Part shown: positions 37,734-41,075 of the stretch, in pieces
Layout of the letters: every line of letters begins with the position of its first letter
Numbering within the stretch: the stretch's first letter is position 1
NCBI GenBank assembly: GCA_050950505.1
Contig: JBMNHS010000001.1
Span: forward strand, 576,001-640,000
Direction: 5' to 3'
Length of the DNA: 64,000 nucleotides
Source: Candidatus Methanomethylophilaceae archaeon
Lineage (GTDB): Archaea; Thermoplasmatota; Thermoplasmata; Methanomassiliicoccales; Methanomethylophilaceae
Made by a program: the position numbers and the translations under genes
The notes under the pieces: model-generated
Told to the model about the DNA's origin: nothing
The model's database searches: none
What the model saw: only the letters and a program-made list of their open reading frames with translations

Positions 37734-38760
37734 TTGTAGTCCCCGGATTTACGCTGAAATGATACCCGTCATCTTTGCGTTCGACACCGAACCTCACGTC
37801 CAGAAACGTTTCCAACGTGTCCATTTGACTGAGAAGGTGTCTGCTGATGTTGGAAACCTTGAAAGCGCTTTTGCCCTCGGCCATGGCCATGTACGGCAAA
37901 AGTTGGTCTGCGGTGTGCACATCGATGGTGGAACCGCTTGTCATTTCTTCAATCAAATCCCTGGCGGCATCCTCGCCGGTCTTTTCCGCCGAGTATTCCC
38001 GGGTGGTCAATCCGTTGCTTCCGAGTTTTCCGTTTTCGAAATCGGCAACAAGGGATATTCCGGCCCCCCGGGAATTTCCCTGGGACGTCTGAATGTCAAT
38101 TTCTGCGTCCGCATAAGGTTTCATGACTTTGACGCAGGACCGGACGATGTCCCGGCCTATTCTGTCGGACAGATTCTGAGTGAAACAAATTCCTCGGACT
38201 GCAACAAGATCCCCAAGTTCCGAAAGATCCAGAGGTTTGATTGTCTTAATCGGTTTCTGTGTTGCAATGACATGACCGCCTCCGCGGGGATAGAATCCTC
38301 TTTCCAGGATTTCGGCTTCGGTTTCGATTCCCATCCTGCCCATCAACGGGTACAGAATCTGTTGATAGCTGTCGATCGGCGGAGCCCAAAGGACGTTGGT
38401 GCCTCCCCGGATATCCACGGTAAGTCCGTTTTCATGATTGCGCGCGGCAAGCATAAGTGCCTGCAAAACAAGAGAAATGCTTCCTGCGGTGCCTATGTTC
38501 AGTTCAATATGATTGTTCTGTTCGGTTCCGGGGCGGAACATAAGTTCGGAAGAACCGGTGAAATTACCCTCAACCTGCGAACCGGTTATTTCGGCGACGG
38601 CACCGACAGCGGCACAATGCTGTCTAGACAATCCGTTCGTGGGCCGGTTTTCTCTTATTCGGGTAAGGTGTGTGGGCATGCCTGTCAGGACCGAAAGAGC
38701 CACGGATGTGCGGACCATCTGTCCTCCGCCTTCTCCCCTAGAACTATCGATCTCCAACAT
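37711..38760 (-). CDS. rtcA: RNA 3'-terminal phosphate cyclase
   Basis: GEGGGQMVR, IR.NRP..GL..QH, GS..L..Q, GGT, RGFYP.GGG, D.H.ADQL. Confidence 0.93.
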   Translation of the reverse strand: MLEIDSSRGEGGGQMVRTSVALSVLTGMPTHLTRIRENRPTNGLSRQHCAAVGAVAEITGSQVEGNFTGSSELMFRPGTEQNNHIELNIGTAGSISLVLQALMLAARNHENGLTVDIRGGTNVLWAPPIDSYQQILYPLMGRMGIETEAEILERGFYPRGGGHVIATQKPIKTIKPLDLSELGDLVAVRGICFTQNLSDRIGRDIVRSCVKVMKPYADAEIDIQTSQGNSRGAGISLVADFENGKLGSNGLTTREYSAEKTGEDAARDLIEEMTSGSTIDVHTADQLLPYMAMAEGKSAFKVSNISRHLLSQMDTLETFLDVRFGVERKDDGYHFSVNPGTTNETVHSS

Positions 38761-38822
38761 AATAATCAGAAGTGTATGTTGAGTGGTCGATATAGATTTA
38801 ACCCTGCGGGTGAGTTCATAAG

Positions 38823-38894
38823 TGCGACCGCCGGGATTCGAACCCGGGTCGGAGGCTTGGGAAGCCCCTATCCTAACCACTGGACTACGATCGC
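38823..38894 (-). tRNA. tRNA-Gly(CCC)
   Basis: Cloverleaf GCGATCG...GGGGC-TT-CCC-AA-GCCTC...TTCGAAT...CGGTCGC-A; no encoded CCA, no intron. Confidence 0.93.
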
Positions 38895-38981
38895 GCAATA
38901 GGGGGTAAACGTTCGGTTCTATTAAAGATAAGGGTGTCTTTCCGCGTTGTTTTAATACTACCGCAGTGTTGCATGTCGCAC

Positions 38982-39057
38982 GGGCCCGTGGTCTAGTGGT
39001 TATGACGTCGCCCTTACAAGGCGAAGATCGTTGGTTCAATCCCGACCGGGCCCACCA
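38982..39057 (+). tRNA. tRNA-Val(TAC)
   Basis: GGGCCCG...TCGCC-CT-TAC-AA-GGCGA...CGGGCCC-A-CCA. Confidence 0.94.
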
Positions 39058-39099
39058 CGTTGTTTCTGGACGTCTTCGAATCTTTGCATCTGTTCTAAA

Positions 39100-39120
39100 A
39101 TGGATGGATGACATCTCCAT
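39100..39120. repeat. 21-bp palindromic motif, copy 1
   Basis: ATGGATGGATGACATCTCCAT. Confidence 0.85.
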
Positions 39121-39222
39121 ATGCGGAGATTTATCGATTTTCGCTTGAATTTCGCGATTTTTATCATCAGATTTTTCAGGATATTTTCTGCGTGTACAAT
39201 ACAATTATATATTAAGTGATAG

Positions 39223-39243
39223 ATGGATGGATGATATGTCCAT
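39223..39243. repeat. 21-bp palindromic motif, copy 2
   Basis: ATGGATGGATGATATGTCCAT, 10 nt after TTATATAT. Confidence 0.85.
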
Positions 39244-39310
39244 GAATAGGGCATAGCCGGGAGCCAACTGTTTCGGTTTCTCCTCCTTCCGACTCCCGGT
39301 TAAATCTTTA
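39236..39310 (+). ncRNA. Putative small RNA 1 (ends approximate)
   Basis: TATA at 39205-39212; stem 39254-39263/39293-39302; CU-rich loop; T-rich downstream. Confidence 0.4.
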
Positions 39311-39369
39311 TCATGTTTATTTTGACGCGATTTGAACTGTCAGTTTAAAAACTTATAAATAGTCAGAAA

Positions 39370-39390
39370 ATGGATGGATGATACGTCCAT
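39370..39390. repeat. 21-bp palindromic motif, copy 3
   Basis: ATGGATGGATGATACGTCCAT, 9 nt after TTATAAAT. Confidence 0.85.
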
Positions 39391-39478
39391 AAAAGATGCC
39401 GCCGAGGATATATCGCTCACCAAATTTCTACTCTTAACCCTCGGCGGCTGTATATTGGGCGAAGGCAATGAATTTTTT
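39384..39478 (+). ncRNA. Putative small RNA 2 (ends approximate)
   Basis: TATA at 39353-39360; perfect stem GCCGCCGAGG/CCTCGGCGGC (39398-39407/39439-39448); T6 tract near 39473. Confidence 0.4.
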
Positions 39479-39522
39479 CGATGAAAATCATACAGTATTT
39501 CCAGTGTACGAACGGAATAAAA

Positions 39523-39599
39523 TGGTGGACCCGGCCGGATTTGAACCGGCGACCTTCGCCGTGTGAAGGCGACGTCATAACCAACTAGACCACGAGTCC
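39523..39599 (-). tRNA. tRNA-Val(CAC)
   Basis: GGACTCG...TCGCC-TT-CAC-AC-GGCGA...TTCAAAT...CGGGTCC-A-CCA. Confidence 0.94.
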
Positions 39600-39683
39600 T
39601 GTACCGTAGCAATATAATGACTGTATTTAACGCTCGCGCATACCAGGAACAAAGATTAACATAAGCAACCCCTTACCGCGGAT

Positions 39684-41075
39684 ATGCCCGAATCCGACCG
39701 CATTCAGCAGAATGCCGAAAATAAGAAACTCTTCTCCAGAGAGTTCGATGTGATTTTGTCCACAGAGAAAACGGGATACCCGAGCTTCATCGGCGGCCTC
39801 CAAGTGGCCTCAGGCATGGATTATCAATTATCCAGTCCGATAGACGAAAGTATAATTTTCGGCAAATTCCAACGTCCTGAGGAAGGAACCGCCGCATATG
39901 CGGTCGAGGCGGCCAAGAAAGCCTTTGAGGTTTGGTCCGCAACGGAACCTTCGGAACGTGCAGCGATATTTGAAAACGTCCTTGAAAGGGTAAAGGCCAG
40001 AAAATTCAGGCTTGCGGCCTGCATTGCAATCAGCACGGGAATGGTAATGGAAGACTGTATCAACGAATCCGATCGGCTGATTGAGATAATCGAAGATGCC
40101 TGTGCCACTGCGGAACGTACCGAGCCTCTCGGAGTCTGGGGGATAATCTCCGAACACAATTCATCTCTGGCGTCCCCTGCCGGTGCGGCGGTTTACGCCA
40201 TGCTTGCCGGAAACACCGTTGTCGCGCTTCCCGCCAAGGGCTGCCCCATGCCCATGTTCATGTTCAGTGATATTCTCCGCGCCGTCGGAGTGCCCGACGG
40301 AGTATTCAACATACTGACTTCGGAAAGTCATGAAACGGACATGGAAATCAGCGAAGATCCGATTGTCAGGGGAATCGCCGTCTCCGGGGGCGGAGACAGA
40401 ATAGACGAACTTATGTTCCTTCCCGTGGATCATGAACTCAGGTTCGTAAGCGAAATAAAAGGAATGAATCCGATTCTCGTTCATAAAACCGGAAATATGG
40501 AAGCAGTTGCAGACAGCATAGCCGAATCCGCGTTCAGAAGCGCGGGTCAGAGACTGTATTCCTGTTCCAAAGTCATTGTAATCGAATCCGAAAAAAGAAA
40601 TCTTCTTTCCGCTTTGAAAGAATCCGTCAAATCCCTTGTGGTCGGTGATCCCGCGGAACTGGAAGCGGACGTGGGTCCGCTGATGTCAAAAACCGATCTT
40701 CTCAGATTCCAGAAACTTATGGAAAATCATTCCGATATGGTTATTCTTGGAGGAAAGAGGGTGCGGGGAGAATTCCTTGATGGGGGCAGTTATGTGGAAC
40801 CCGCCGTTGTGGAGGTGTCTTACGCCGAATGCGAACTTGGAAGTTATGACATGGGATTGCCGATTCTGGCAATTGTATCTGTTTCCGACGAAGATGAAAT
40901 GTTCGAAGAATTGCTGAGCACCGAATGCGGACTGTCCGCTTCCCTGTTCACCGATGACGGCAAACTCATCGAAAGATTCAAAGAAGAAGCGGAAGCCACC
41001 GTCCTCAATATTAACAAAGGGACGGAAAACACGCTTCCGGCATCCACTCTGAGCATAGAGAAATTCAGTGCCTGA
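39684..41075 (+). CDS. Aldehyde dehydrogenase family protein (P5C-dehydrogenase-like, divergent)
   Basis: AV.AA..AF..W, PLGVWGII, AGNTVV, P.GVFN, SAF..AGQ, GLSASLFT; active-site motifs degenerate. Confidence 0.75.
   Translation: MPESDRIQQNAENKKLFSREFDVILSTEKTGYPSFIGGLQVASGMDYQLSSPIDESIIFGKFQRPEEGTAAYAVEAAKKAFEVWSATEPSERAAIFENVLERVKARKFRLAACIAISTGMVMEDCINESDRLIEIIEDACATAERTEPLGVWGIISEHNSSLASPAGAAVYAMLAGNTVVALPAKGCPMPMFMFSDILRAVGVPDGVFNILTSESHETDMEISEDPIVRGIAVSGGGDRIDELMFLPVDHELRFVSEIKGMNPILVHKTGNMEAVADSIAESAFRSAGQRLYSCSKVIVIESEKRNLLSALKESVKSLVVGDPAELEADVGPLMSKTDLLRFQKLMENHSDMVILGGKRVRGEFLDGGSYVEPAVVEVSYAECELGSYDMGLPILAIVSVSDEDEMFEELLSTECGLSASLFTDDGKLIERFKEEAEATVLNINKGTENTLPASTLSIEKFSA

Follow-up and report, generated by a model that had tools for sequence, protein, structure and literature searches.

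A palindromic repeat on tandem small-RNA promoters is a putative operator of methanogenesis and cofactor genes in Methanomassiliicoccales

Introduction

The Methanomassiliicoccales are methyl-reducing methanogens of guts, rumens and digesters. In Methanosarcina acetivorans the mtaCB operons, which encode a methanol methyltransferase and its corrinoid protein, have dedicated regulators, the Msr proteins, of a family different from that of the candidate discussed below, and TrmBL1, SurR and Tgr are archaeal regulators whose effect depends on where their site lies relative to the transcription factor B recognition element (BRE) and the TATA box. Here we analyse a locus of a Candidatus Methanomethylophilaceae archaeon (GCA_050950505.1) at which three copies of a 21-bp palindromic repeat lie between two tRNA-Val genes, two of them on the promoters of predicted small RNAs. 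The locus is contained in a 64,000-nt stretch of contig JBMNHS010000001.1 (positions 576,001 to 640,000, forward strand), which we refer to as the window and whose own numbering is used throughout unless a contig is named. As at the sites of TrmBL1, SurR and Tgr, the position of one and the same palindrome varies between promoters, from upstream of the TATA box to over or after it; the protein family differs from theirs.

The closest described small RNAs are sRNA41 and sRNA154 of Methanosarcina mazei, methanogen RNAs with a promoter of their own and anti-ribosome-binding-site letters in a loop, which are proposed to block the translation of central-metabolism mRNAs by masking ribosome-binding sites (PMC5867862). 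The RNA family predicted here resembles them in its putative promoter and its loop letters, and may have a like role. Unlike sRNA41 and sRNA154, to which it has no sequence or Rfam relation, it carries the anti-Shine-Dalgarno core of 16S rRNA as its loop, and its genes, flanked by tRNA genes, are arranged in tandem and linked to a specific operator. Our literature search turned up no regulator or operator for the methanogenesis genes of Methanomassiliicoccales, nothing on transcription start sites and promoters in this order, and only unrelated contexts for the 12-mer that begins the repeat; in the available portion of a paper on gene expression in M. luminyensis a regulatory network is only "assumed" and the word "promoter" is absent.

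Operators and trans-acting small RNAs are known categories, and the regulon, the candidate regulator and the small-RNA family described here are previously undescribed. We consider it probable, from comparative sequence analysis, that the repeats, here located on tandem small-RNA promoters, are docking sites of a conserved regulator of methanogenesis and cobalamin-type cofactor genes, and that this regulator reads methyl-transfer promoters as well. Given a putative operator of 21 bp, a candidate protein that would bind it and a list of predicted targets (the regulator itself, corrinoid proteins, cobalamin genes, mtaCB, ramA and, in several genera, mcrB), the control of methyl-transfer and cofactor genes becomes directly testable, and DUF2111 and DUF4443 would gain a first functional handle. 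A further addition is a family of predicted structured small RNAs whose anti-Shine-Dalgarno loop resembles the ribosomal sequence, in an organism with few GGAGG sites.

Results

A 21-bp repeat recurs between tRNA-Val genes and across the order

The window contains three plus-strand copies of a 21-bp repeat of the form ATGGATGGATGA-N4-TCCAT, and the coordinates that an initial sequence-only reading had assigned to these copies, to two TATA boxes and to two GC-rich stems all proved exact (Table 1). The convergent tRNA-Val genes that it had named as flanks were both placed by ARAGORN, one on each strand. Three matches to the degenerate 21-mer occur in the window where 0.02 are expected, a count reached in none of 100 shuffles, and a chance origin of the motif is excluded. 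Across the 1.33-Mb genome the 12-mer ATGGATGGATGA is present in 4 copies (reversed control, 0), and when mismatches to the 17 specified positions are allowed we find 19 matches at up to three mismatches and 73 at up to four, as compared with 0 and 2 for the reversed pattern. The core of the motif is an inverted repeat, TGGAT-N5-ATCCA, whose left side is extended by a second GGAT unit (a 4-nt repeat); this core has 10 sites in the genome against 0 for the control, and the form ATGGA-N11-TCCAT, for which the sequence-only reading had proposed a genome scan, has 9 against 0.

Table 1 Features of the locus between the two tRNA-Val genes (window positions)
Feature	Position	Strand	Basis and remarks
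tRNA-Val (anticodon TAC), left border	38982..39057	+	ARAGORN; Rfam tRNA 68.7 bits
Operator copy 1 (putative)	39100..39120	+	Exact match; weak TATA-like run immediately ahead; not followed by a GC stem
TATA box of small RNA 2	39205..39212	+	Sequence reading; 10 nt ahead of copy 2
Operator copy 2 (putative)	39223..39243	+	Match; about -11 to +10 of predicted start 39233-39236
Small RNA 2 (predicted)	39234..39323	+	Model R1, 73.8 bits over 39234-39309; covariation; fold; T-run 39320-23
GC stem of small RNA 2	39254-63/39293-302		10 bp; 29-nt loop
TATA box of small RNA 3	39353..39360	+	Sequence reading; 9 nt ahead of copy 3
Operator copy 3 (putative)	39370..39390	+	Match; covers predicted start 39381-39385
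Small RNA 3 (predicted), diverged paralogue	39381..39478	+	Model R1, 18.3 bits; fold; T-run 39473-78
GC stem of small RNA 3	39398-407/39439-48		10 bp; 31-nt loop
tRNA-Val (anticodon CAC), right border	39523..39599	-	ARAGORN; Rfam tRNA 67.4 bits

The motif is conserved well beyond this genome. Thirty of the 41 nearest genomes carry the 12-mer (52 matches, against 3 for the control), and, of 261 genomes of the order, 67 have a 20-nt pattern, which matches 80 times as compared with 2 times for its reversed control. When we sampled the class as a whole, 8 of the 22 genomes from methanogen families that bear the domain DUF2111 had the 20-nt pattern, and none of 129 others did. Relatives of the same genus hold the motif between the same two tRNA-Val genes, and outside the genus the spacer sequence between the tRNA genes is poorly conserved. 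This poor conservation, together with the position of the locus between tRNA genes, would suit the ends or attachment remnants of a mobile element at a tRNA gene. We regard such an origin as very improbable, given that the gap holds no integrase or transposase open reading frame (ORF), that the copies are direct repeats inside promoters, and that in 21 of 40 genera unrelated promoters of the chromosome bear the motif. Two further candidates were rejected: a replication origin, as all copies run in the same direction, a fourth is 400 kb distant and the surroundings are those of promoters; and protein coding by the motif itself (ATG GAT GGA TGA or longer frames), as the frames that follow agree neither in length nor in sequence from copy to copy.

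The motif lies at set distances from TATA boxes of methyl-transfer, cofactor and small-RNA genes

We collected 77 distinct motif contexts and named the neighbouring genes by Pfam and NCBIfam. The motif adjoins a corrinoid-protein gene (B12-binding plus B12-binding_2) in 29 of them, stands in a small-RNA-like context in 23, and lies within about 170 nt of mcrB in six (with mcrB on one side of the motif in four and on the other in two). It is directly ahead of a gene for a winged-helix (PH0730-like/CggR-like)/DUF4443/DUF2111 protein in four contexts, ahead of a gene for a 344-aa protein without an assigned family in two, and ahead of a CobD-like gene in one. Twelve contexts are unclassified, window copies 1 and 3 among them, and four more of the unclassified resemble mis-parsed corrinoid or regulator contexts, judging by ORF listings and, for locus L081, by a reading of the upstream sequence.

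In the genome that holds the window, strong sites are the three window copies, the divergent region between mtaC-mtaB and ramA (named by Pfam MtaB and RACo), the region between a CobD-like gene and an ABC ATPase, the promoter of the candidate regulator described below, and the promoter of a 196-aa protein without an assigned family. An operator-like site was found at most 250 nt upstream of five of the eight corrinoid-protein genes. Weaker or purely palindromic sites lie ahead of some of these corrinoid-protein genes, of cbiD and of a corrin methylase gene, and at BtuC-like permease, cobaltochelatase-like and CfbC/NifH-like genes, whose best NCBIfam matches are below the curated cut-offs. The shared theme of these predicted sites is the methyl-transfer and cofactor apparatus of methanogenesis.

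How the motif would act depends on its position relative to the start of transcription. TATA-like hexamers in this genome peak 31-28 nt ahead of the ATG of long ORFs, and GGAGG stands at the Shine-Dalgarno position of only 80 of 1531 long ORFs, which together suggest that most genes are leaderless. All 20 small-RNA promoters of the genus that were read have a TATA core in the same columns, 18 to 12 nt ahead of the motif (recognized by a regular expression in 13 and by eye in the rest). This spacing, calibrated on the leaderless genes, puts the predicted start at motif positions 11-14, in agreement with starts near 39236 and 39384 as predicted by the sequence-only reading. A different geometry is seen at corrinoid-protein genes: in 25 of 32 contexts a spacer of 5-7 nt separates the end of the site from a TATA box downstream of it. 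The sites at mtaC in this genome and at mcrB in other genera are placed likewise, upstream of the TATA box, which is an activating position in other archaeal regulators. At the promoters of the candidate regulator the site abuts the TATA box, whose core is 28-29 nt ahead of the ATG. These are promoter locations with defined spacings between motif and TATA box.

A motif that is always within about 25 nt of a TATA box, at genes whose expression should be high (mcr, corrinoid proteins), might instead be a core-promoter element read by the basal machinery, either a TFB or TBP paralogue or a strong initiator region, with no dedicated regulator. We think this improbable. The position relative to the TATA box varies, from 5-7 nt upstream (corrinoid-protein genes) through abutting (regulator) to 10-11 nt downstream (small RNAs); the motif is an inverted repeat, as expected of a dimeric factor; 61 of 75 genomes retain it at the promoter of a gene for a DNA-binding protein; and the adjacent tRNA promoters are without it.

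Some sites come with additional sequence. In other genera (L086-L098, L083-L084 and L063-L066) a second conserved element, of the consensus forms ACTATCGTTAA and CGTTAAGG-N3-GTTTAA, lies 10-45 nt from the motif, and in one genus a degenerate second copy of the motif follows 11-12 nt after the first.

A winged-helix/DUF4443/DUF2111 protein is the candidate regulator

The DNA-binding protein in question is encoded in the window's genome as a 320-aa orthologue (contig 1, 789046-790008, minus strand) that contains the Pfam domains PH0730-like_N, DUF4443 and DUF2111. Its gene was detected in 107 of 111 genomes of the order. In the promoter of the orthologue a TATA box is followed by one base, a variant of the 21-bp motif with two mismatches, and then the ATG, the geometry of a leaderless gene with a site between its TATA box and its start. 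This arrangement is kept: in 61 of 75 regulator promoters that were read, a strict TGGAT-N5-ATCCA or TGGAT-N9-ATCCA ends 1-9 nt ahead of the ATG, as compared with 15 of 20000 random 85-nt windows of the same genome. In other families of the order the site at this gene consists of two perfectly inverted 8-bp arms separated by 5 nt, of which the window 21-mer represents the complete left arm and the inner part of the right arm.

The phylogenetic distribution of the protein parallels that of the site. Within the class, all 22 genomes sampled from methanogen families have DUF2111 and none of 129 genomes from other families does, and among 14 control genomes only Methanocaldococcus jannaschii and Methanosarcina acetivorans have it. 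The regulator gene is also divergent from atwA, which encodes component A2 of methyl-coenzyme M reductase (MCR; 712.8 bits on TIGR03269), in all 30 loci of the family (L106-L135). The site is, then, conserved at the gene of a DNA-binding protein, and site and protein co-occur; most likely, on this comparative evidence, the 21-bp repeat is the operator of an autoregulated winged-helix/DUF4443/DUF2111 protein. Downstream of the regulator gene we note a DUF6951 gene in 26 of the 30 loci and a 188-aa gene without an assigned family in 29 (own locus: contig 1, 788141-791787).

The closest solved relative of the candidate is PH0730 of Pyrococcus horikoshii (PDB 2p8t), with an E value of 2.9e-9 over residues 31-191, and the N-terminal DNA-binding domains of CggR/SorC proteins match it at E 4.5e-4 to 1.5e-3. 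PH0730 is annotated as "hypothetical protein" and, unlike the candidate, is without DUF2111. A search of NCBIfam found no name for the candidate, public annotation calls it only "DUF2111 domain-containing protein" or "predicted transcriptional regulator", and a literature search for DUF2111 or DUF4443 returned nothing.

Two shorter proteins of the same genome have the same DNA-binding domain without DUF2111. One of these paralogues, or all three proteins, might read the operator as that of a vitamin-B12-type cofactor regulon in which the DUF2111 protein is merely a target, and the perfect TGGAT-N5-ATCCA sites at cbiD and the corrin methylase gene, the BtuC-like permease, the cobaltochelatase-like gene and ABC transporters would fit such an assignment. 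We give it a low probability, as the promoters of the paralogues are without the motif, whereas that of the DUF2111 gene has it throughout the order.

Copies 2 and 3 are predicted to drive structured small RNAs

To describe the RNA downstream of copy 2 we built a covariance model from motif position 12 onward, leaving out the 12-mer. Of 15 genomes of the genus, 13 have one to three copies by this model, and the two without a match are 76% and 72% complete. Although the 12-mer had been left out, the exact 11-mer stands directly ahead of 18 of the 21 readable matches, and a one-mismatch variant stands ahead of the other three. In the alignment fitted to the model, 90.7% of the cells are paired, as compared with 30-53% when partners are slid, and changes on both sides are seen in six of 19 pairs, five of them in the GC stem; neither the count of double-change cells nor the covariation score was reached in any of 500 shuffles. 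An alignment made without the model still has a compensatory change in five of 12 pairs. The covariation that the sequence-only reading had proposed to look for is thus present in the copy 2 RNA, which is conserved with compensatory changes.

Folding the two regions with RNAfold gave -26.2 kcal/mol (z -2.84) for 39235-39323 and -30.1 kcal/mol (z -2.99) for 39383-39480, and recovered the GC stem in each. In small RNA 2, helix P1 pairs 39236-41 with 39249-54 in a hairpin that uses the right half of the operator, helix P2, the GC stem, pairs 39255-63 with 39293-301, and helix P3 pairs 39273-76 with 39289-92 around a 12-nt loop with CCUCC at 39282-86. Small RNA 3 keeps the GC stem, adds an outer pairing of 39384-89 with 39456-61, and is without the CCUCC hairpin. 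The two sequences had been called otherwise unrelated; this does not hold, since the copy 2 model matches copy 3 with 18.3 bits (E 1e-4 in an 801-nt search). In 16 of 20 copies the stem is followed by four or more T in a row, which supports transcription of the plus strand. Short ORFs downstream vary in length between copies, and the units have a putative promoter and terminator of their own and no consistent ORF. When 38700-39900 was searched against Rfam, as the sequence-only reading had advised, only the tRNAs passed the gathering score, even at an E-value limit of 10, and four related loci likewise had no Rfam match besides tRNAs; the cobalamin riboswitch and C/D-box families are thus among those without a match. 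A C/D-box RNA was rejected, as small RNA 2 has no CUGA D-box.

Most likely, then, copy 2 drives a predicted RNA of about 75-90 nt that is genus-conserved and covarying, and copy 3 would drive a diverged paralogue of it. Behind copy 1 the RNA model scores 7.6 bits over 39111-39164 (E 0.057) and the fold has a z of -1.3; this copy is either a decayed module or an auxiliary (helper) site. Two like-architecture small RNAs sharing an operator over their start sites, with copy 1 as an extra site, is what the sequence-only reading had proposed, and the proposal draws its support from comparative evidence, that is, from the order-wide palindrome in promoters, the TATA spacing and the conserved, covarying copy 2 RNA.

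The same reading had offered, as an alternative, an array in which the motif works as RNA: a transcribed 5' hairpin (AUGGA...UCCAU) would form a constant handle for an RNA-binding or processing protein, and the downstream stem-loop a variable guide. Indeed, the motif can form a hairpin of 5-7 bp, the minimum-free-energy fold of 39370-39480 pairs it, its right half joins hairpin P1, and the loops of copies 2 and 3 differ. We nevertheless judge a handle of this kind to be an outside chance. TATA spacing sets the start at motif positions 11-14, so that most of the 12-mer would be untranscribed and lie upstream of the RNA, and the motif also occurs beside mcrB in both orientations and between the TATA box and the ATG of leaderless protein genes. 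The guide, moreover, does not vary: the same CCUCC loop is present in all 20 distinct full-length genus copies that were read, and only copy 3 of the window differs. The 21-bp repeat is better understood as a DNA operator than as an RNA element.

Structured RNAs may accompany the operator elsewhere too. Two other genera have RNAs that share the operator and a CCUCC stretch but fold differently. In another genus (L054-L062) a structured RNA of about 110 nt follows an operator located directly behind a TATA box, with a CCUCCUCC stretch ahead of a terminator-like hairpin about 55 nt upstream of a gene that, from a translation read by eye, looks like a ribose-phosphate pyrophosphokinase gene; this RNA may be a leader and not an independent small RNA. 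More hairpins are seen behind the mtaC/ramA operator (L004:1300-1520, minus strand; in the window's genome, contig 1 near 1022700-1022950), and one of them, with AUUCCAAC in its loop, recurs behind the operator of a distant family (L021) and may be another small RNA.

The loop of small RNA 2 matches the 3' end of 16S rRNA

The P3 loop reads CCUCCUU, and the 16S rRNA of the same genome ends in CACCUCCU, with the same letters. We scanned 4154 candidate starts bearing a Shine-Dalgarno site, a set dominated by false ORF starts, with RNAduplex; the best lead was the mtaC ribosome site, at -20.6 kcal/mol against a background of -14.1 (standard deviation 3.7), about 1.8 standard deviations better than the mean, and the regulon genes other than mtaC were unremarkable. 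That the small RNA masks the Shine-Dalgarno sites of leadered mRNAs is a weak guess, suggested by the loop and paralleled by sRNA41 and sRNA154, and the scan could not support it. The 3' end of the 16S rRNA itself (contig 1, about 698795-698850), GAUGGAUCACCUCCU, resembles both the GATGGATGA of the operator and the small-RNA loop, possibly by coincidence.

A model for opposite control of methyl-transfer genes and small RNAs

These observations suggest a model in which the 21-bp repeat would act as a protein-binding DNA operator and not as an RNA handle, and in which its binder would be the 320-aa winged-helix/DUF4443/DUF2111 protein, autoregulated via the site between its own TATA box and ATG. 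As the operator spans the predicted small-RNA starts, regulator bound at the window copies should block initiation and so shut off the tandem small-RNA genes. The copy 2 RNA would expose the CCUCCUU loop and, as a weak guess, might pair with the Shine-Dalgarno sites of the minority of leadered mRNAs and block their translation. At the corrinoid-protein, mtaCB and mcrB promoters the same operator, located upstream of the TATA box, would activate. With activating positions at one set of promoters and start-covering positions at the other, one regulator could turn methyl-transfer genes and small RNAs in opposite directions.

Several points weigh against this model. The start site of the small RNAs, and hence their repression, is placed by TATA spacing, and the DUF2111 protein is proposed as the reader of the site because of its apparent autoregulation; either shorter paralogue could be the real binder. 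The mcrB promoter of the window's own genome shows no clear operator. The left half of the motif is conserved beyond the need of a simple palindrome, and all 29 corrinoid contexts hold the motif in one orientation, which is odd for a symmetric dimer site, the search pattern itself being asymmetric. The genomes compared are kin, and the counts overstate their independence. For the small RNAs, the covariance model gives a single weak match in 18 other genera, the alignment from which most of the covariation was read had been fitted to the model structure, and the target scan was uninformative. Contigs of four RNA runs sharing 4-6% of words with the DNA cover only the two tRNA genes; the flanks of these contigs are unlike the window, which indicates that they come from other organisms and that they are silent on small-RNA expression.

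A broader version of the model, which we put forward as tentative and rather doubtful, would make the regulator a cofactor-sensing (corrinoid or related) master of methyl-reducing methanogenesis in the Methanomassiliicoccales. Its targets would be MCR with its activator A2, the supply of F430 and cobalamin, and the corrinoid proteins with their activase, and the small RNAs would be a post-transcriptional arm, anti-Shine-Dalgarno mimics that gate the few leadered mRNAs. Given that DUF2111 was confined to methanogens among the control genomes, this class of regulator may control methanogenesis genes in other methanogen orders.

Further sites and neighbouring genes

Contig 1 holds, at 863-875 kb, four near-identical perfect TGGAT-N5-ATCCA palindromes within 12 kb. 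They lie amid ABC transporters, the cobaltochelatase-like gene and the BtuC-like permease gene, and the region looks like a corrinoid uptake and salvage cluster.

A protein family without a Pfam or NCBIfam match is associated with the operator in more than one genus. In another genus (L056:1527-2543 and L069) its gene has the operator between TATA box and ATG, and in the window's genome the operator is found ahead of the gene for the 196-aa paralogue (contig 1, 863173-863763). A homologue at contig 1, 844634-845597, was matched as two adjacent pieces, which might mean an in-frame stop.

Beyond the right-hand tRNA-Val gene of the window lies a gene of the aldehyde dehydrogenase family (463 aa, 39684-41075, plus strand), which is syntenic in relatives of the same genus.

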